The notes under the pieces were generated by a model. It worked only from the letters and a program-made list of their open reading frames with translations, had not been told where the DNA came from and did not search any database. From a virus (Duplodnaviria; Heunggongvirae; Uroviricota; Caudoviricetes), in the IMG/VR virus record IMGVR_UViG_649989948_000008, positions 1 through 39,032 of that record: a stretch of 39,032 nucleotides of DNA; one strand, 5' to 3'. Below, one piece after another: positions 8,776-35,729 of this stretch. The position numbers and the translations under genes were made by a program. Within the stretch, counting starts at the first letter, position 1. Each line of letters opens with the position of its first letter.

Positions 8776-11115
8776 TTACTCTTCTACTGACTCGGTGGGG
8801 TTGTCTTTTGCTCTTCGGTCGTCGATTGCCTGCAAAGCCGCAATGATTTCAGCCAGTGGCTTCTCCCGATACATCTCGACGATCTGCGATTTGGTGTATT
8901 TCTTGTCACCAATTTCAACTCGCCCGCTGGCGTTCTTTGGCAGGTATCCTTCTTCCAGCATGTACTCGACGAGCGATTCGATAACGTCGAGGCCACGAGT
9001 AGGATCGAAGTAGAATTTCCAGGTGCATTTGCCATACGGTGGTGCAACTTTGTTTTTGATGCATTCTGCGCCTACGTCCTGGCCGATCTTCTCTTTACCA
9101 TCCTTCATCACCGATGCACCAAGACGGATACGTACAGAAGCGTAGAACTTCGGTGAATCTCCACCTGGCGACGTAGTAGGGTCGCCAAACATTACACCGA
9201 TTTTTGTGCGAACCTGATTCAAGAAGATGATGCAGGCGTTGTATTTGCGTGCCCACAAAGCCAGAGTAGGGAAGTTCGCACTCGTCGCACGAGCCAGTGC
9301 CGTATTGTCGTTCATGTTTAGCTGATCTTTGTCTTTGGCTGTGCCTTCAGCCATCTTTTCGAACTTCTCGGCTTTGGAGTTCGGAACCATAGACGCAAGA
9401 GAGTCAGCCACGATACAGATAGGTGCTGATTCGGGGATAAGCTCTTCATCACGAACCAATTTAAGTATTGTGCCGATCAACTCTACAGAGTCTTCGAAGG
9501 TATCTGGCTGCTTGTATACCCACTGACCGTCATCCTCATCTGCGTTCAGGCCATTGGCTACAGCCAGGCCAACGTCAAAACTGTTTTCATGATCGAGGAA
9601 TACCGCCAGACCATCTTGTTTTTGAGCGGAGATCATCGCTGCTGTTGCAAGGAATGTGTTGTGGCTGATAATCCCGTTAGACCAGAAAGAGTGTGTTTCC
9701 GGCATCGCTACGTCGAACGTTGGTGCTTCACCTTCCTCAATAGCCACGACTTCGTCGTAGAACAAGTTAGAGCCAATTACCGCTGCCAGTTGTGCAAACA
9801 GATGCTCGTTAAAACGATTCTTTCTGCCAATGAAGGAGACATAGATTTCTCGCAGTTTGTCTATTCCGACACGATCGCCGCGGCCAATAACGTGGTCTAC
9901 CAGAGCGTAGTCTTCACGGGTGGTCTTGGTGAGCGACTCGTAGAGTGATTTCACTAAGCCGCTGATGTGCGGAACATAGCCTGAGTAAGTGCGGTCAAAA
10001 CCAATGTCCCGTTTGGTTGCCACTGATAAACGTGCCGGAGATTCGAAACCAATCGTTGACAGAAAAAGGTCGTAATTAGAGCCACTGAATGACAGCCGGT
10101 AATATGTATTTTCATAACCCGCGACGTGTTTTTCAGAGATAGTTGACGTAATCCCCAGATTCAGGAGCATGAGGCGAATTTGCTGTAGCAGCAGCCCACT
10201 CGCGCTCACAACCTCAATGCAGCGACCATCATTGACGTGGCATTCCAGCTCAAAGTAGCCGCGAAGGAATGCAATTTGAGCCTCGCTATTGGCGCGACGC
10301 ACACTCAACGGAACCTGCTTGCCAGCAGCTTTCTCATACTCCAGACCATATTCTTTAAAAAGCAGCGAACGCACCTCTTTGCTAAACAGCACATGGTCTT
10401 CCGAGCCGTTATGTTTTCTCGTAACTGGCATCTTGTCTGATACCAGCGAAATGAGGCGGTAGTACTCATCCTTGATGAAAGGATCTGTGTTAGAAAAATT
10501 CACTGAATTTTCAGAGGCCACGTATCCGTCAGCAATTAAATAGCCCATCAGTTTTGCGATATTGGCATCCAGGTGCTGATCGCCGAATTGATGTGTGCCA
10601 ACCATTGAAGGAATCGTGTCGCCTACACTGATTTTTTCAGCATGTCGCCAGACGACATTACCTAAGTCGTCAACCACACGGATTGGGTGACGGAACGTAG
10701 CCTCGATATAACCGCCTGATGCCAGCTTAATACGCTTGAATTTGCGACGGTTGTTCCATGTCAGGTGTGAGGTCTTCTCTATCACGCCATTTTCATTGAT
10801 GAGTCCAACGTTATGCTCTACATCGCGAGTAGTGCATGTCGCTTTGTACCCTTCAATCTCAAACAACTCTTTCACTGTTACCATTCCACGCTCCGTCAGC
10901 AGCATGGTGTCTGCGGTAACACATTTCCCCGCGCTTGGTGGCCCGAATACTTCTACGATACGACCACATGGGAAACCGCCATCGTAACGACCGGAAATCG
11001 CTTTGTTTAACGGAGGAAAGCCTGTGTCAATCCAATGAGTTACTTTCTGAATTTCGTCGTTGCTACCGATTTTCTTTTTCAGAGCAAGTGCCAGTGCGGA
11101 TTTTCCTTTTGCCAT
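8776..11115 (-). CDS. recA: RecA-family recombinase interrupted by an intein (779-aa precursor, ~357-aa predicted mature protein)
   Basis: Exteins resemble RecA: GRIVEVFGPPSAGK|..|TFLA (Walker A), VFLDHENSFD, VMFGDPTTSPGGDSPKFYASVRIRLG; ATG with AGGAG RBS. Confidence 0.8.
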   Translation of the reverse strand: MAKGKSALALALKKKIGSNDEIQKVTHWIDTGFPPLNKAISGRYDGGFPCGRIVEVFGPPSAGKCVTADTMLLTERGMVTVKELFEIEGYKATCTTRDVEHNVGLINENGVIEKTSHLTWNNRRKFKRIKLASGGYIEATFRHPIRVVDDLGNVVWRHAEKISVGDTIPSMVGTHQFGDQHLDANIAKLMGYLIADGYVASENSVNFSNTDPFIKDEYYRLISLVSDKMPVTRKHNGSEDHVLFSKEVRSLLFKEYGLEYEKAAGKQVPLSVRRANSEAQIAFLRGYFELECHVNDGRCIEVVSASGLLLQQIRLMLLNLGITSTISEKHVAGYENTYYRLSFSGSNYDLFLSTIGFESPARLSVATKRDIGFDRTYSGYVPHISGLVKSLYESLTKTTREDYALVDHVIGRGDRVGIDKLREIYVSFIGRKNRFNEHLFAQLAAVIGSNLFYDEVVAIEEGEAPTFDVAMPETHSFWSNGIISHNTFLATAAMISAQKQDGLAVFLDHENSFDVGLAVANGLNADEDDGQWVYKQPDTFEDSVELIGTILKLVRDEELIPESAPICIVADSLASMVPNSKAEKFEKMAEGTAKDKDQLNMNDNTALARATSANFPTLALWARKYNACIIFLNQVRTKIGVMFGDPTTSPGGDSPKFYASVRIRLGASVMKDGKEKIGQDVGAECIKNKVAPPYGKCTWKFYFDPTRGLDVIESLVEYMLEEGYLPKNASGRVEIGDKKYTKSQIVEMYREKPLAEIIAALQAIDDRRAKDNPTESVEE
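9658..10923 (-). mobile_element. intein with LAGLIDADG homing-endonuclease domain (422 aa) inserted in the RecA P-loop
   Basis: Starts with Cys (CVTADTMLL), TxxH block (ATFRH), LAGLIDADG blocks (LMGYLIADGYV, FLRGYFELECHV), ends ...ISHN followed by Thr; junction codons checked by hand. Confidence 0.8.
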
Positions 11116-11117
11116 GA

Positions 11118-11390
11118 TCAGGCTCCTTTTGTTTCGTTGATTCGTTTTAAAGCGGCGGATTCGTCGAATACAATCGCATCGTGGTTAAGGAGTCTGGATA
11201 CACGAGCGAGGATTTTTACGACCTGCTCGCTGACTAATCCAAACTCGCGATCTGTCGCTTTCATTCCGGCAGCGCCTAGAATTGACGGCAGTGCGATGAC
11301 AGCGTACTCACCGTGATAAAAGACAATCTCTTTTGCCAGTTGGGCAGGGGTGGTTGTAGCGCCATTAATAATCGATTTAAGCATTAGCAA
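11118..11390 (-). CDS. hypothetical protein (90 aa)
   Basis: ORF between the exonuclease and the RecA-like gene; no motif recognised. Confidence 0.35.
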   Translation of the reverse strand: MLMLKSIINGATTTPAQLAKEIVFYHGEYAVIALPSILGAAGMKATDREFGLVSEQVVKILARVSRLLNHDAIVFDESAALKRINETKGA

Positions 11391-12328
11391 TACCTTTCGA
11401 ATGGAAGAACAAACACTTCAAGGTCTTCAAGGAACGAACGGAAATTCAGCTCGTAGCACAGTTGCTCGAATGCTTTCACGTCACGATTGCCTTTGATTGT
11501 TTCGATTTCGGTAGGCGGAAACTTCGTCTCAATCAGGTTCATTAGCGTGATGTTTCTCTTGAACGCTTCGAGCATTCGACAGCCTGTTTTCTCGTTGAAG
11601 GCATTCTTCGCTAGTTTGTTGAAGGCGGTCTTATGGCGTCCTTTGTCAACCACGATTGAGCCGTCGTTGATGCCGCGTACCATCGTTGCGACACTTCCCC
11701 ATTCATGCAGCAGCTCTTTCGCACCGCCAGCACCAATGCCACCAACACCGCTAATGTTGTCCGATTTATCGCCTTGTAATGCTTTTGCTTCCAAAAATGC
11801 GCGAGGAGTAGCGAATCCTGTCAGCTCCGCAAATTGCTCAAAATTAACCTGCTTGTTTTTGGCGTCTTCGCGCAGGCTTACCCAGCTTACGTTTTCGCGA
11901 ACTAACTGAAGCCAGTCGCTATCGCCTGTTAACAGATAGATGTGTTCAACGATTGGCTGCGGTGCAATGCTGGCTACCAGCAGCCCGGCCAGATCATCCG
12001 CTTCTGCATCTTTTGCAATGAGTTGGGTAACTCCAAGCGCGGTCATCATTTTGAGGATGTATGGCTTCTGGATAGCAAAGCCTTCCTTCATCTTTTTCAT
12101 ATCAGGATCGTCGTCGCGATTTGCTTTGTAGTCCGGGTAAAAGTCGCGACGCTTGTCACTAAATCCATCCCAAAGAATCATAGGTCGGGCATGGAGGATG
12201 GAGGCATAACGACGGACGTTCTTAACAAAGCCGAAAGCAGCCTGTACTTCCATTTCGCCGTTGTGCAATTTGTCAGATTGTTGGTGGTAATAACCCAGGC
12301 TATTGCCATCTACGAAGAGATAATTCAC
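11384..12328 (-). CDS. 5'-3' exonuclease / flap endonuclease (T4 RNase H / T5 D15-like)
   Basis: N-terminal LFVDGNSLGYY and H3TH motif GDKSDNISGVGGIGAGGAKELL. The track ORF starts at 12379, but that part overlaps a terminator hairpin; a GTG at 12328 with RBS GGAAGGA is the more likely start. Confidence 0.7.
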   Translation of the reverse strand: MNYLFVDGNSLGYYHQQSDKLHNGEMEVQAAFGFVKNVRRYASILHARPMILWDGFSDKRRDFYPDYKANRDDDPDMKKMKEGFAIQKPYILKMMTALGVTQLIAKDAEADDLAGLLVASIAPQPIVEHIYLLTGDSDWLQLVRENVSWVSLREDAKNKQVNFEQFAELTGFATPRAFLEAKALQGDKSDNISGVGGIGAGGAKELLHEWGSVATMVRGINDGSIVVDKGRHKTAFNKLAKNAFNEKTGCRMLEAFKRNITLMNLIETKFPPTEIETIKGNRDVKAFEQLCYELNFRSFLEDLEVFVLPFERYC

Positions 12329-13534: not shown

Positions 13535-13966
13535 TCAACGGGGAGTAATAAAGCGTTCAGAGCCTAATCGCTCTAATTCAACGATGGCCATCTTTGACGC
13601 CTGAACGATCATGTCTCGGCGATGCGAAAAGGCGGCGACAGCATGTTTGTATATGTCTGCGATGTGCCGTGCTTCATCCAACTTCTGCCTTTTAGACAGA
13701 TACTGTGGGTTTGTTTTAACCTTAGCGTCCAGTACAGATTCGTTGAACTTAATGCCGTTCATACTCAAGTTCTTACGCTCTGTGTCGTATAGCTTTGCTT
13801 CAACAGCTTCAAGGTTAAGTTTTGCCTCTGCGACACTTCTTTCTGCATGAGCGAGTTTTGAGCCATACTCCATTAAAAGGCGGGGTTGTCTACGCCAGAC
13901 TTCCTCCAGATTGTCTCGGTCAAACTCGAGATCAGACATTATTTTCTCGTAAATATCGGTGATCAT
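13535..13966 (-). CDS. hypothetical protein (143 aa, helical)
   Basis: ATG in conserved start context; no motif recognised. Confidence 0.4.
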   Translation of the reverse strand: MITDIYEKIMSDLEFDRDNLEEVWRRQPRLLMEYGSKLAHAERSVAEAKLNLEAVEAKLYDTERKNLSMNGIKFNESVLDAKVKTNPQYLSKRQKLDEARHIADIYKHAVAAFSHRRDMIVQASKMAIVELERLGSERFITPR

Positions 13967-14091
13967 GTGCTTTCCTTTTTACTTATCATCTTATATTGAT
14001 TATATCATTGTGATGATAAGGCAAGGAGTTCGAGGATAGGGGATATGAGGGGATAAGAGAAAACATGGCCATAGAGGCCATGTTTATTGGA

Positions 14092-15261
14092 TCACGACTT
14101 AATAGTTTCTGCTACGTCGGCTAATATCGCTTCTAGTCGTTCTCCCTCTTCAGGTCTGAAGTAAAGAATGTTGGGGTTAAACCCGTAAAAGACAGTAACG
14201 TCAAGGTCTGGAAGATACTCCTTCCTGCCGACCAAATCGGATGGCTTGTTTTTGTTGTTAAACAATGCCGTTGCCCGGCTACCACACGTCAGCACATAGG
14301 TCGGGCGCACCAGATTGATCTCTTCACGCATAAAGTCGGTGAACTGGCCGATCTCGTCTTTGGTGTAGTCCTTTTCTTTGTCTTTCACCTTTTTGCAAAC
14401 GCCTGTGACATAGAGATCGCCCATGCGCAAATCCCCAGCCGTCAACAGCTTGGCCTTAAAATCGTCGTATCCGTTCTCCATAAAGTAACCGGTTCGAGCA
14501 TCATTGCCGTTCGCATTGTCCAGAATGATCATGATTTTCGGCTTAATACCAATGCTGGGGCGGATTAGTTCATCACCTAAGCCCATTTCAGCCGCCATCC
14601 GCGTCATGAGTACGTTAATCTCAGCCGAACGTTTGGGGTTCATCTCAAACGGACGTGACGCTTTAACTGCGTCTATGACAAGGTTTCCCATCAATTCAGC
14701 CTGGTCGCGTAGGCGCTCTGGATCAGTTGCTGGCAGACTACCTGGCTCGATGGATGCAAACGCCCCTACTTTTTGCAGCGATTCGCGCACTCGACTATTA
14801 CAGGCACGTTTCTCGACAGCTTCTTCGAATTGCGCCAGTGACTCGAATTTGCCGCCAACTTTTTCTCGCGCTCTCATGATGGCTTGGCAGCCATTCTCAG
14901 AACACCCTTTCACAGCAGAGAAGGGCGCATACAGCACCTGGCTGCCATCTTCAAGCGTGCGGATCTCGATTCGGTTAGATGACACGTTAACGTCTGGTGG
15001 CAATACGCGAATACCATAGGTCAGCGCATCTTTAACCAGCCCCTGGTGTTTATCTTCGCCAAGAATAGTGAGAGCAGCAGCGAAGAACTCCGCGGGATAA
15101 TGAGTTTTCAACCACATAGATTGATAACTGATTAAGGAGTAAGCAACAGAGTGTGATTTGTTGAAGGCATACGCGCCGGATTTCTCAAACATATTCCAGA
15201 TTTCTTCGGCTCGTTCGTGCGTCAGGCCATTGCTCTCTTCGACAACACCGGTAATTTTCAT
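14092..15261 (-). CDS. dnaE: DNA polymerase III alpha-like (DnaE), C-terminal fragment of a split gene
   Basis: Begins within the conserved region AYAFNKSHSVAYSLISYQSMWLKTHYPAEFFAA; its ATG overlaps the HNH gene stop (ATGA). Confidence 0.75.
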   Translation of the reverse strand: MKITGVVEESNGLTHERAEEIWNMFEKSGAYAFNKSHSVAYSLISYQSMWLKTHYPAEFFAAALTILGEDKHQGLVKDALTYGIRVLPPDVNVSSNRIEIRTLEDGSQVLYAPFSAVKGCSENGCQAIMRAREKVGGKFESLAQFEEAVEKRACNSRVRESLQKVGAFASIEPGSLPATDPERLRDQAELMGNLVIDAVKASRPFEMNPKRSAEINVLMTRMAAEMGLGDELIRPSIGIKPKIMIILDNANGNDARTGYFMENGYDDFKAKLLTAGDLRMGDLYVTGVCKKVKDKEKDYTKDEIGQFTDFMREEINLVRPTYVLTCGSRATALFNNKNKPSDLVGRKEYLPDLDVTVFYGFNPNILYFRPEEGERLEAILADVAETIKS

Positions 15262-15992
15262 GCAGTCACCTCATCAATCTTCACGAACTCATACCCATTG
15301 GAGGCCAGCCAGTTCCGTTGGCGCTCCCAGCTCCATATCTCTTCACGCATTTCACTATGCAGGCGAATGTGGGCGTCTTCTGGAAGTGCTACAAGATTCC
15401 CAGGGGCGTTATCTATCGTATCGCGGTTAATATGGTGGACATGTTCATCGTCACGTAGCTCCCGACCGAGACGTTCTTTCGCTATCAATCGATGAACGTA
15501 TTCGTATTGCGAAACGCCATTGTTACCAACCAGCTGCATCATGTAGCCGTTGGTTTTTACGATGATGCCACCTTTGTAGTTGTTCGCTTCTTCTCCGATC
15601 TTTCCGCGTTTGGCAGCCGCCAGCTTTTCCTTCGTCTCCGCGCGGATTGTTCTGCCGGTTAGCTTTTTCGAAACGGTGGCCACTCGCTCATCGATATCAG
15701 CACGCAGACCGGCATTCCACGAGGTTTTCCCATACATAGGGTTGCCAGTGCCAGTCCGGGCTTCGGAGAGACGCTTCATACGTTCGTCATTATTTTTGTT
15801 TTTGCCACGATTCCAGGCTGGGGTAGCGGAGATCCGCGCGCTTCCGCGCCTGATCCCCCATTTGGCTAATAAGCGGTCAATATTTGCCTTGCTGCAACCA
15901 GCTTCGGCGGCAATGTCTTCTTTTCTCATCAGGTCAACCATGTAACGCTGACGTAACCATTCTTCTGTGATTTTGTACTTCGTACTCGGCAT
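15258..15992 (-). CDS. HNH homing endonuclease inserted between the two DnaE fragments
   Basis: HNH motif EHVHHINRDTIDNAPGNLVALPEDAHIRLH, NUMOD-like repeats and an N-terminal HTH-like segment; preceded by its own AAACAAATTGTTTTCTTA motif. Confidence 0.75.
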   Translation of the reverse strand: MPSTKYKITEEWLRQRYMVDLMRKEDIAAEAGCSKANIDRLLAKWGIRRGSARISATPAWNRGKNKNNDERMKRLSEARTGTGNPMYGKTSWNAGLRADIDERVATVSKKLTGRTIRAETKEKLAAAKRGKIGEEANNYKGGIIVKTNGYMMQLVGNNGVSQYEYVHRLIAKERLGRELRDDEHVHHINRDTIDNAPGNLVALPEDAHIRLHSEMREEIWSWERQRNWLASNGYEFVKIDEVTA

Positions 15993-16040
15993 TTCTAAGA
16001 CTCACTAAACAAATTGTTTTCTTATCTTATAAATTAATTC

Positions 16041-18404
16041 TCAAATATCGAAGCTCGTTATGTCGGCATTTATTGCCATTGCTTCGGCATAAGTGCGACG
16101 CTCACCATCAGCACAAAGTAGGCGTGCTGCTTTATGGATTTTTCTCGTAGAACCATCATCCAGTGACACTGTCACCCAGCCTTCCTCCGCTCGCTTAATG
16201 AAGTCGCCGCCAATGGATTTCATTTTCTCCATATCTTTTTTCCCGATCGCTTTCCTGACCGAGTCTGCTTCCGCCATTGAGAACCCCGCCAAGATTCGCG
16301 TAGCAGCCATGATCTGTTCCTGATAAATCAGAACTCCGTTTGTGTCGCGAGAGATGTCGTCCAGCATTGGGTGTAAGGAATGTGGGGCCATGAAGCCTTT
16401 GGCCACGGACACATAATCGTCCAACATGCCGGATTGAATCGGGCCAGGTCGGAAGAGCGCAGTTGTAGCGACGACCGTTTTAAAGCTCATTGGCTCAATT
16501 CCACCACCTAAATCTTTAAGCAGCTTGCGCATTGGGCCTGATTCAAGCTGGAATACGCCCTGTGTATACCCTGCAGCAAAACCATCCAGCACCTTGCGAT
16601 CTTCAAGAGAAATGGCATCAAGATTGATATCTTCACCTGTGTTCTCTTTTATGTAGCGTTTTGCACTATCGAGCAAATCGAGAGTTGCCAGGCCAAGCAC
16701 GTCCAGCTTAATTAGGCCCATAGCCTCGCAGTAACGCTTGTCAAATGCGATACAACGCGCGTCACCACGGCGTTCAACCGGTGTACGTTCTGTCAGAGGA
16801 ACACCTGCTACGATCATCCCTGCCGCATGTCTACCAAAGCCACGCATAAGGCTTTGTAACTTGCAGGCTGCATTGAATGCATCAGGATATTTTGTTGCGT
16901 ATTTGTCGAGACTTGCCAGTTGTTCGCGCAGCTCTTCCAATGGAAGGCTATCATCCTCGACGTTCTTCAGTTCTTTTGATACCGCCATATCTGCGGACTC
17001 CACACCATAAATACGAGCGGTGTCACGTAGTGCAGAGGCTGCGCCCAGGTAGGTGAAGTTCGGAATGCCTGCAACGTAATCTTCGCCGTAGCGTTCATTC
17101 AGATACTCGATCACCTCATGGCGACGTGCCTGGCTGAAGTCCAAGTCCGCATCCGGCAAGTCGAGACGCTCAGGGTTGATGAAACGCTCAAACAGAAGAC
17201 CGTGACGGATTGGGTCGACGTTGGTTATGCCTATGCACCACGCCACCAGAGAACCGGCAGAGGAACCACGACCAGGCCCAACGGGAATGCCAGTTTCACG
17301 ACTATGATTCATCAGATCGCGCACCATCAGGAAGTAACCACAGAATCCCAGGCGAGTCAGCGTGTCCATTTCGTACTTTAGCCGCTCAACATAAACCCTG
17401 TTCTCAGAAGCAGGTGGTGTGTAGCCAAACTCTTTTGTGGTAAGACGTTTACGCAGCCCTGCAACAGCCAGTTTCATAAGCGTTGCAGGCTCGTCGTCTG
17501 CCATCTTGGGCAGTGCTGGTGGCAATTCATGCCAGCGCCATGTGCAGGCATCGATAATGGAGTCCTGCGTTGTTGAGGCCATTGCAGCTGTTACTGGCAC
17601 ATCCATGCGAACGGAGAAGGCTTTAAGCGCCTCAAGGAGATGGCGACGACCATTGATGGCGTTATCTCGCTGGTGGGGGATACGCAGACGATGCGGCTGG
17701 TCGATTTTTATGTTGTTCGTAACCATGTGCGCAATGTCTTTAATGTCAGCATCGTCGATCGATTCGTAATAAGCGGGATAGAACGCTACTGGCTCTATTT
17801 TCAGTGCGCTGGCGACTTTCATCGCCCGGACGTTAATCTGGTCGTAGAATGGGGTAGGGTGCGGATAGACCACACTATAGAAGTTGTCTTTTCCACCCGC
17901 TGTAATCAGTGTGCTTATGATTTTTGCAAAATCGTTGCGTTGGAACACGCTACCGATGTCGGAAGTAAGCAGGATGATGTTGCCTTTGGCATATGTAGAA
18001 ACCAACTGTTCGAGCGAGAGACGCGGTACAAAGTAGAACTGTTCTCGTGTGTTGGCCACCGTCATTAGTTCGCAGATGTCGCGATATCCTTGCTCATTTT
18101 TAATTAGAGCGGTAAACGAGTAGTTACGTCCCCGCTCTAATGATTCCATACATCTCATAGATTCTTTAGCAAGTTTAGCCCGGTGCTCGTATGTGGGATC
18201 ATCAACAATGTTTAGTTTCACACCACAAATAACCGCCATGTCGTCACCAGCGGCACGTTGTAGTGGAATAACGCTCGCAATATTCATGCTATCTGCTGAA
18301 ATTACAGCGGTGTAGCCAGCTTCTCTGGCAATCTTCACCGCGTTTTCTGCTTTTAGAGCCGACTCCCCAAGTGAGAAGTCAGTTCGAACCATCAGTGCCT
18401 TCAT
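16041..18404 (-). CDS. dnaE: DNA polymerase III alpha-like (DnaE), N-terminal fragment (PHP and polymerase core)
   Basis: GRGSSAGSLVAWCIGITNVDPIRHGLLFERFINPERLDLPDADLDF and RHAAGMIVAG match the Pol III alpha core; ends just after RKAIGKKDMEKMKSIGGDFIKRAEEG. Confidence 0.8.
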   Translation of the reverse strand: MKALMVRTDFSLGESALKAENAVKIAREAGYTAVISADSMNIASVIPLQRAAGDDMAVICGVKLNIVDDPTYEHRAKLAKESMRCMESLERGRNYSFTALIKNEQGYRDICELMTVANTREQFYFVPRLSLEQLVSTYAKGNIILLTSDIGSVFQRNDFAKIISTLITAGGKDNFYSVVYPHPTPFYDQINVRAMKVASALKIEPVAFYPAYYESIDDADIKDIAHMVTNNIKIDQPHRLRIPHQRDNAINGRRHLLEALKAFSVRMDVPVTAAMASTTQDSIIDACTWRWHELPPALPKMADDEPATLMKLAVAGLRKRLTTKEFGYTPPASENRVYVERLKYEMDTLTRLGFCGYFLMVRDLMNHSRETGIPVGPGRGSSAGSLVAWCIGITNVDPIRHGLLFERFINPERLDLPDADLDFSQARRHEVIEYLNERYGEDYVAGIPNFTYLGAASALRDTARIYGVESADMAVSKELKNVEDDSLPLEELREQLASLDKYATKYPDAFNAACKLQSLMRGFGRHAAGMIVAGVPLTERTPVERRGDARCIAFDKRYCEAMGLIKLDVLGLATLDLLDSAKRYIKENTGEDINLDAISLEDRKVLDGFAAGYTQGVFQLESGPMRKLLKDLGGGIEPMSFKTVVATTALFRPGPIQSGMLDDYVSVAKGFMAPHSLHPMLDDISRDTNGVLIYQEQIMAATRILAGFSMAEADSVRKAIGKKDMEKMKSIGGDFIKRAEEGWVTVSLDDGSTRKIHKAARLLCADGERRTYAEAMAINADITSFDI

Positions 18405-34961: not shown

Positions 34962-35729
34962 ATGGACGATTTATCGGTATACGCGAGATCATTGGATAAG
35001 GCTAAATACTATGTTTACTGTCTCTATGATACAGAAGACAAGATGAAAAGACCGTTTTACATAGGAAAAGGCAAATCGACTCGTTGTCTCGATCACATCA
35101 AGTATCCCGATGACTCTCCCAAATCCATGCGGATCAAAGAACTTTTGGCTAATAAAAAATTAGGCATAGATATACTTCGTCATGGTATGGATGAAACCAC
35201 AGCCAAACTTGTTGAGGCGACATGCATCGACCTTATGGGGGTCGGAGAGCTTACGAATAAGGTACGAGGAAGTGGTTCCATGATGGGCAGAATATCACTA
35301 GACGCCTACCATCACTTAGTGCTGCAAGAGGAAACTGAAATTGCTCCTGAGCACGCCGGTCTTGCCTTCCTGCTAAACAGCACCTACAAGTCAGGAATGT
35401 CCGCTCTGGCATTATATGAAGCTACGCGTGGCGTATGGGCAAAGGTTCCAAGAGACGAGAATCTCAAATATGCCTACGCTACATATGGTGGGCTGATAAT
35501 GGAAGTTTATCAGATTGAATGCTGGGTCAAAGCCGGCTCTCAGCAGTACTTTACAAGGGATATAGCTCTTGGCCCCGACACAAAACGTTATGAATTTGTT
35601 GGCAGAATAGCCGATGAGCATATTAGAAAACTGTATGTAGGCAAATTAATCAAGAAGCCACCAAGCTACGGTAGCCCTTTTGTGAAGGTTGGGGTGGTTA
35701 GGACTGAACATAGTGTTAGCGCGGCATAA
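34962..35729 (+). CDS. GIY-YIG nuclease-domain protein with uncharacterised C-terminal domain
   Basis: YYVYCLYD ... PFYIGKGKSTRCLDH (GIY and YIG elements, Arg), later LVEATCID (Glu) and LTNKVRG (Asn); one of the few plus-strand genes. Confidence 0.6.
   Translation: MDDLSVYARSLDKAKYYVYCLYDTEDKMKRPFYIGKGKSTRCLDHIKYPDDSPKSMRIKELLANKKLGIDILRHGMDETTAKLVEATCIDLMGVGELTNKVRGSGSMMGRISLDAYHHLVLQEETEIAPEHAGLAFLLNSTYKSGMSALALYEATRGVWAKVPRDENLKYAYATYGGLIMEVYQIECWVKAGSQQYFTRDIALGPDTKRYEFVGRIADEHIRKLYVGKLIKKPPSYGSPFVKVGVVRTEHSVSAA

Follow-up and report, generated by a model that had tools for sequence, protein, structure and literature searches.

How a recombinase gene whose ATP-binding loop is split by a long foreign segment can be maintained, and how that segment came to lie there, is the question raised by one locus of the virus record IMGVR_UViG_649989948_000008 (IMG/VR; Caudoviricetes). 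The window considered here is the whole stretch of DNA analysed, 39,032 nucleotides, corresponding to positions 1 to 39,032 of that record. The gene in question is a single open reading frame (ORF) of 779 codons, called by the ORF finder at 8776..11115 on the minus strand, with a Shine-Dalgarno-like AAGGAG 8 nucleotides 5′ of its ATG. The answer favoured here, with a probability of about 85%, is that the insert is a class 1 intein of 422 residues which carries a nested two-motif LAGLIDADG endonuclease, lies between the Walker A Lys and Thr of a phage-plasmid recombinase, splices itself out of the precursor protein, and homes into intein-free alleles.

The anatomy of the precursor is well defined. 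Its translation reads ...GRIVEVFGPPSAGK(64) / C(65)VTADTMLLT ... FWSNGIISHN(486) / T(487)FLATAAMIS..., where the slash, here and below, marks a junction or insertion point. The N-extein (residues 1-64; 10924..11115, minus strand) reads ...EVFGPPSAGK(64) at its end and thus finishes with the first seven Walker A residues, GPPSAGK, aligned to the ...GPESSGK of Escherichia coli RecA. The C-extein (residues 487-779 and the stop codon; 8776..9657, minus strand) begins with the Thr that serves as +1 nucleophile (9655-9657) and completes GPPSAGKT. Between them lies the intein (residues 65-486; 9658..10923, minus strand), 422 residues or 1266 nucleotides long, and the remainder amounts to 357 residues. 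The initial annotation had proposed an intein in the P-loop at this position, beginning with Cys, containing a TxxH block and two LAGLIDADG blocks and ending in His-Asn before a Thr, whose removal would restore the Walker A box and leave a protein of RecA size. The coordinates agree exactly, every one of these elements has been located, and translation confirms both the restored GPPSAGKT and the length of 357 residues.

All parts of the intein are encoded on the minus strand. The N-terminal part of the Hint domain (intein residues 1-115; 10579..10923) is delimited by a TIGR01445 match over residues 1-83, by modelled beta strands at 7-107 and by residue conservation; it contains Cys1 (precursor Cys65; 10921-10923) and block B, T76-F-R-H79 (TFRH; 10687-10698). 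The nested LAGLIDADG homing endonuclease region occupies intein residues ~116-385 (9769..10578), as indicated by a PF14528 match over 215-292, by modelled helices at 120-131 and 213-227 and by Foldseek matches to PI-PfuI, PI-PkoII and TliVMA. Its first motif is LMGYLIADG (intein residues 125-133; 10525-10551) with the acid D132, and its second is LRGYFELEC (220-228; 10240-10266) with the acid E227. The C-terminal part of the Hint domain (386-422; 9658..9768), recognised by TIGR01443 and by conservation, contains block F, TFDVAMPETHSF (9685-9720), which includes D404, and the end of block G, H421-N422 (9658-9663), directly followed by the Thr codon. The signature of a class 1 intein is therefore present in full, with Cys1, TxxH, D404 and H411 of block F, H421-N422 and Thr487 at +1, as is that of a double-motif endonuclease, with two LAGLIDADG helices and the catalytic acids D132 and E227.

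Profile searches point in the same direction, with matches far beyond chance. PF14890 (Intein_splicing) matches the insert with E=4e-12 and 46.6 bits (cutoff 35.8); the match spans residues 9-422, and the endonuclease is thus an internal insertion within the splicing domain. PF14528 (LAGLIDADG_3) gives E=4e-18, above the gathering threshold. Among the NCBIfam models, TIGR01445 (intein N-terminus) scores 35.3 bits against a cutoff of 24.5, TIGR01443 (intein C-terminus) scores 16.9-17.8 bits against 15.6, and there are many partial matches to the intein portions of the intein-bearing RFC, IF-2, GyrA, ribonucleotide reductase, DnaB and V-ATPase models. 

Relatives were collected by an exhaustive search of 1.84 billion representative proteins, which gave 189 representatives at E<=1e-30; a word-indexed homologue search gave 13 proteins, and it is through the exhaustive search that the family becomes visible. 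Across 119 full-length relatives, the residues of the window match the consensus at all catalytic positions. For the splicing residues the counts are C1 (118 of 119), T76 (114), H79 (115), D404 (119), H411 (105), H421 (119) and N422 (118), and the +1 residue is mostly Thr or Ser. As for the endonuclease acids, Asp or Glu occupies intein position 132 in 114 of these relatives and 227 in 109. A second cysteine, Cys30 (10834..10836), is kept in 59.

A Hint fold had been anticipated for residues 65-486, and structure prediction supports it. The AlphaFold2 model of this segment has a mean predicted local distance difference test score of 81 and a predicted template modelling score of 0.85; beta strands at intein residues 7-107 and 387-421 form the two predicted Hint halves around a helical middle. 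The best PDB matches by Foldseek are the TliVMA intein (7qss, E=2e-19), PI-PfuI (1dq3, 6e-17), PI-PkoII (2cw7, 3e-16) and PI-SceI. The top matches are all endonuclease-bearing inteins (E=2e-19 to 1e-7), whereas mini-inteins, including those of Pyrococcus horikoshii RadA and Mycobacterium tuberculosis RecA, and Hedgehog Hint domains rank next and match the Hint part only. In the model, therefore, the insert has the Hint and endonuclease folds of solved inteins with a nested endonuclease.

The host protein can be identified from its exteins. In the full-length protein, PF00154 (RecA) matches in two pieces with 125.5 bits, above the Pfam gathering threshold; when residues 65-486 are removed in silico, the match becomes one stretch of 145.8 bits (E=2e-42). 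The spliced sequence matches RecA structures and carries GPPSAGKT, a Walker A box of the form GxxxxGKT, and alignment of the exteins with E. coli RecA places the break, as had been expected, between Lys and Thr of GPESSGK/T. With TIGR02012, the equivalog model of bacterial RecA, the spliced sequence reaches 153.7 bits where 325.3 are required; among the PHROGs, the exteins match best to phrog_97, a UvsX-like recombinase (1e-91). On these grounds a bacterial RecA orthologue was rejected. The adjoining genes encode a 5′-3′ exonuclease and a gp32-like single-stranded DNA-binding protein, both recognised by Pfam, and a protein annotated as UvsY mediator in Escherichia phage Cyrano. The phage-type neighbours and the PHROG and TIGR02012 results together argue for a phage-type RecA/UvsX-like paralogue belonging to a phage recombination module rather than a cellular RecA. 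The earlier label of a RecA-like recombinase consequently stands as far as the RecA ATPase core is concerned, whereas orthology to bacterial RecA does not follow from it.

That the 422 residues are an insertion is also seen from alleles in which they are missing. The allele of Escherichia phage CMS-2020a is 1074 nucleotides long, lacks the 1266 nucleotides, and encodes a protein of 357 residues that is identical, at every residue, to the predicted ligated exteins of the window. At the DNA level the two differ at 19 of 1074 nucleotides, and 11 of these differences fall within 106 nucleotides upstream of the junction, where ~1.9 would be expected (binomial P=3e-7). The alleles of phage SSU5 and of Klebsiella phage ST13-OXA48phi12.3 (hereafter phi12.3) are likewise intein-free and precisely lack the insert. 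The search for intein-free relatives, recommended at the outset, has thus found them in three phages, and the hypothesis of a native domain is rejected by these precise empty sites.

Each empty allele has a filled counterpart in its own lineage. In the E. coli lineage, the window is paired with CMS-2020a (extein nucleotide identity 98.2%); in the Klebsiella lineage, CP034047 with phi12.3 (98.5%); in the Enterobacter/Salmonella lineage, AP025825 with SSU5 (97.0%). The exteins of the three lineages are mutually 81-85% identical, whereas the inteins are 96.8-97.0% identical to that of the window, and identity changes sharply at both intein junctions. Measured by synonymous distance (pS), the inteins are 0.085-0.088 apart and the exteins 0.55-0.76. 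All filled alleles have in common the sequence GCGGGGAAA / ACATTCCT around the insertion point, whereas the empty alleles read GCAGGGAAA / ACGTTCCT, GCTGGTAAA / ACCTTCCT and GCCGGTAAA / ACCTTTTT, each departing from the filled one at wobble positions; the shared flank that accompanies the intein is only ~9 nucleotides long. Discordant divergence of intein and exteins, an empty allele in each lineage and shared flanking wobble bases indicate, in the simplest reading of the sequences, repeated and recent homing, that is, at least three independent invasions with short co-conversion tracts, as would be left by an endonuclease.

A more divergent copy of the intein (94% nucleotide identity, pS 0.19) is present on the 62-kb E. 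albertii plasmid CP043255. Its N-extein differs by only pS 0.045, similarity of the C-extein is lost ~300 nucleotides past the junction, and the gene is without annotation. This copy is probably a rearranged remnant; given its diverged or rearranged C-extein, it was used for intein comparisons only. Older lineages of the intein, as this copy shows, are present in the same kind of exteins.

Both domains of the intein are under purifying selection. In the Hint part the ratio of non-synonymous to synonymous distance (pN/pS) lies at 0.05-0.09, in the endonuclease part at 0.14-0.21; values of 0.015-0.05 in filled alleles show that purifying selection on their exteins is strong. The reading frame is unbroken through both junctions in all copies examined, and no stop codon was found in the four other intein copies examined.

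The locus is polymorphic and not fixed. Among 5426 complete E. coli genomes, the recombinase gene occurs in 249 and the intein in 120 of these (~48%), or ~2% of all genomes; the PLSDB plasmids that match the gene number 736, of which 248 have the intein, 240 of them with >=80% of its length. The counts of gene presence were obtained by megablast and represent lower bounds for divergent lineages. The intein-bearing PLSDB plasmids come from Escherichia (123), Klebsiella (71), Enterobacter (41), Citrobacter (6) and a few other genera. In the 5426 E. coli genomes the copies are all plasmid-borne, with none on a chromosome, and an invasion of the chromosomal recA of the host was accordingly rejected.

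The proposed mechanism begins with the 779-residue precursor, which should be inactive with its ATP-binding loop broken. As the Walker A Lys and Thr stand 422 residues apart, the precursor would neither bind nor hydrolyse ATP, and it is a sound inference from the split P-loop that recombinase activity would depend on splicing. According to established intein chemistry, an N-S acyl shift at Cys1 would be followed by transfer of the thioester to the hydroxyl of Thr+1 (trans-esterification); Asn422 would then cyclise, aided by H421, by T76xxH79 of block B and by D404 of block F, and an O-N shift would leave a normal peptide bond. The expected products of the 86-87 kDa precursor are a recombinase of 357 residues (~39 kDa) with GPPSAGKT and a free intein of ~47 kDa; ligation would create the junction peptide ...GPPSAGKTFLATAAM..., also written ...VFGPPSAGKTFLATAAMISAQK. 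The population data suggest that the free intein would cut intein-free alleles near GGxAAA/ACx when two related phage-plasmids share a cell, as might happen on infection of a lysogen by a virion. The break would then be repaired from the filled allele, which would bring in the intein and a few flanking bases.

Several observations weigh against this interpretation. Ordinary recombination between phage-plasmids, with no endonuclease action, might in principle be enough to make the inteins of different lineages nearly identical. The intein is found in 0 of 63 Yersinia and 1 of 42 Salmonella alleles in PLSDB, a scarcity which could reflect target-site resistance or simply no contact. The second LAGLIDADG motif, LRGYFELEC, ends in Cys and not in Gly, although Cys, Ser and Gly are about equally frequent at this last position among relatives. 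Finally, the literature searched contains no splicing or cleavage experiment on this protein.

The alternative that best survives, though it is unlikely, accepts splicing and holds that the endonuclease is inactive now, the present distribution being due to past homing, homologous recombination and clonal spread. Decay of the endonuclease once an intein is fixed is what homing-cycle theory predicts, and the distant relatives P0007, P0012 and P0013, inserted at the same RecA site, have had endonuclease motifs deleted, unlike the intein of the window; in addition, the endonuclease part has a pN/pS about double the value of the Hint part. This ratio is, however, still well under 1, D132 and E227 are both present and match the family consensus, and the locus has not reached fixation, as about 48% of E. 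coli alleles are filled and filled and empty alleles coexist in three lineages. The sharp change of identity at the junctions, with a shared flank of so few nucleotides, also fits double-strand-break repair better than random recombination.

A more speculative proposal, and a rather improbable one, gives the intein a function in competition between phage-plasmids, as a weapon or a switch. When two SSU5-like elements meet in a cell, by breaking the empty recombinase gene of the rival it might both disable the recombination module of that rival and convert it (marker exclusion), and conditional splicing, governed by a Cys1/Cys30 redox pair or by single-stranded DNA, might also or instead time the recombinase to lytic growth. 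If this were true, homing and conditional splicing as they occur in nature could be tested directly in a standard laboratory organism, since the hosts are E. coli and Klebsiella and since Cyrano/pLF82 is inducible and produces virions.

The idea that the intein, besides homing, is a conditional switch, its splicing answering to redox state, temperature or single-stranded DNA and so gating recombination between the plasmid state and lytic growth, is more doubtful again. Conditional splicing is known for the P-loop inteins of RadA (PMC5790916) and has been proposed for inteins of P-loop ATPases in general (PMC4760082), and Cys30 could pair with Cys1 as a redox trap. None of this support is specific to the present protein, and half of the otherwise near-identical phage-plasmids are without the intein, which is therefore dispensable. 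That the insert does not splice at all, leaving an inactivated recombinase with a domesticated or decaying endonuclease, is hardly credible: most records bear the RefSeq/PGAP name 'LAGLIDADG family homing endonuclease', but every splicing residue is intact, the frame runs on through both junctions, the exteins of filled alleles are as strongly constrained as stated above, and for the Enterobacter copies, which are 97% identical, the name given by PGAP itself is 'intein-containing recombinase RecA'. The reading of an intein that both splices and homes is accordingly retained.

Public annotation already recognises the element as an intein or a homing endonuclease, though under discordant names. 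Besides the prevailing RefSeq name (e.g., WP_001051807.1), 'hint domain-containing protein' and 'recombinase RecA' are in use, and in PHROGs the full-length protein forms its own family, phrog_9666, of 'unknown function'. Such naming hides the phage-plasmid recombinase from surveys based on gene content or function. No paper describing this intein was found in the literature searched, which covered inteins in connection with SSU5, phage-plasmids and the matching phages, the supplementary tables of Novikova et al. 2016 being left unchecked.

On E. coli plasmids of ~105-115 kb the gene has counterparts of 98-100% identity, and those in Escherichia phages PhiR41_1 and Cyrano are 98-99% identical; the synteny of the window with Salmonella phage SSU5 is clear. 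The window is that part of an SSU5-like phage-plasmid which serves replication and recombination. It encodes a Rep3 initiator, SbcCD-like genes, an SPFH protein, the recombinase, the exonuclease, the single-stranded DNA-binding protein, DnaE, an integrase, four tRNA genes, a ligase, a primase, a DnaB-like helicase and a ParA-like ATPase. Cyrano, which carries a near-identical filled allele, is the pLF82 of E. coli LF82 and makes virions upon ciprofloxacin induction (PMC9928086); the word "intein" does not occur in that paper. The value of the locus lies in this setting. It provides a natural intein in E. coli and in many Klebsiella and Enterobacter plasmids, that is, in organisms usually treated as intein-free laboratory hosts, and it has been caught in the middle of an invasion, with filled and empty alleles in three extein lineages and a clear co-conversion footprint. 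Coexisting alleles, together with the cultivable and inducible Cyrano/pLF82, put the measurement of homing and splicing in vivo within easy reach.

Other features of the window deserve mention. The dnaE gene, for the alpha subunit of DNA polymerase III, is split in two by a free-standing HNH endonuclease gene (14092..18404, minus strand). The first half (16041..18404, minus strand; 787 residues) has PHP, pol3_alpha and finger domains, and its alignment with the intact DnaE of plasmid NZ_CP103659.1, a protein of 1172 residues, covers residues 1-782 of the latter. It is followed by the HNH endonuclease ORF (15258..15992, minus strand; 244 residues, HNH_3 and NUMOD3) and by the second half (14092..15261, minus strand; 389 residues, HHH_6), which aligns to DnaE residues 789-1170 and whose ATG overlaps the HNH stop codon. 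Relative to NZ_CP103659.1, the dnaE DNA is 95% identical upstream of the break and 83% in the downstream fragment, which suggests that a foreign segment came in with the endonuclease gene. No split-intein halves were found at the break, so the polymerase would have to act as two chains. The 1073-nucleotide insert region of dnaE occurs in 26 PLSDB plasmids, and the genes listed for CP100028.1 include neither of the two dnaE halves.

An ORF of 255 codons at 34962..35729 on the plus strand has a GIY-YIG nuclease domain (PF22945, E=5.5e-7); it is flanked by large ORFs of the opposite strand, one of which, just upstream, is the DnaB-like helicase gene. This ORF may represent a third free-standing homing-type endonuclease of the region. 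The tRNA genes form a cluster, Ser(tga), Thr(tgt), Tyr(gta) and Asn(gtt), at 26443..26993 on the minus strand. In NZ_CP103659.1, three small genes lie between the UvsY-like gene and dnaE; two of them are annotated as HicA/HicB in Cyrano, and the third is cspG. This three-gene stretch (9582..11588 of the NZ_CP103659.1 locus compared) has no BLAST match in the window, which contains ~180 nucleotides in its place (13946..14125). Conversely, 24516..26265 of the window has no counterpart in NZ_CP103659.1, whose sequence differs there, and its two ORFs (270 and 193 residues) gave no Pfam matches.

With regard to known systems, RecA is among the top bacterial intein hosts, with 56 inteins, some of them from Proteobacteria, and the clustering of inteins in P-loops has been stressed (Novikova et al. 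2016, PMC4760082). Insertion between Lys and Thr is the 'classic' P-loop insertion (Kelley et al. 2016, PMC5050341), and the arrangement GPPSAGK/C...HN/T, aligned to GPESSGK/T of E. coli RecA, is of this type. Among 160 related proteins examined, 105 have RecA-like exteins; the GK/C junction is present in 131 (96 of them RecA-like hosts) and the HN/T junction in 119. As the GK/C junction is found in so many RecA-like hosts, including a canonical RecA, P0007, the present intein is one member of a large RecA P-loop intein family. The uncharacterised RecA P-loop inteins of bacterial and viral (meta)genomes, such as P0014, P0015 and P0007, are like it in insertion point (..GK/C...HN/T..) and in architecture and are 33-48% identical over 422 residues. 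P0007 lies in a chromosomal RecA (GPESSGK/.../TTL) on a 550-kb bacterial contig of GCA_027484465.1. The relatives differ in their distance, the nearest one outside the phage-plasmid group being 48% identical and none exceeding this figure, and in their hosts, which include canonical bacterial RecAs with GPESSGKT as opposed to the GPPSAGKT of the phage-plasmids.

The RadA inteins of P. horikoshii and Thermococcus sibericus also sit at a Lys/Thr junction. They likewise occupy the P-loop of a RecA-superfamily ATPase domain (PMC5790916), and the Hint part of a RadA intein is similar in structure (4e2t, E=2e-4) with only ~20% sequence identity in the aligned Hint. They differ in being archaeal mini-inteins without an endonuclease, and their conditional splicing has been demonstrated experimentally (PMC5790916). 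The M. tuberculosis RecA intein (NF007072) resembles the present one in having a LAGLIDADG-type endonuclease within RecA and a similar Hint structure (2imz, 2in0). In that model, however, the RecA part is continuous to ~253 before the intein, whereas the break in the window falls at about profile position 70, in the P-loop. Membership in the M. tuberculosis allele was therefore rejected: RecA is aligned without a break through profile positions 71-253, and of the 1024 bits that NF007072 requires only 100.8 are reached. The TerL1-a inteins of mycobacteriophages differ in their host protein, a terminase and not a recombinase, and in the actinobacterial hosts of their phages. The TliVMA intein, PI-PfuI, PI-PkoII and PI-SceI provide the best structural matches across both domains, with query-normalised template modelling scores of 0.60-0.68 for the first three, but they are only 9-21% identical and reside in V-ATPase, ribonucleotide reductase and DNA polymerase of archaea or yeast. 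Set beside all these systems, the element belongs to a well-known class and is ordinary within it: an intein with an endonuclease, placed at the P-loop Lys/Thr of a recombination protein, holds no surprise for the specialist.

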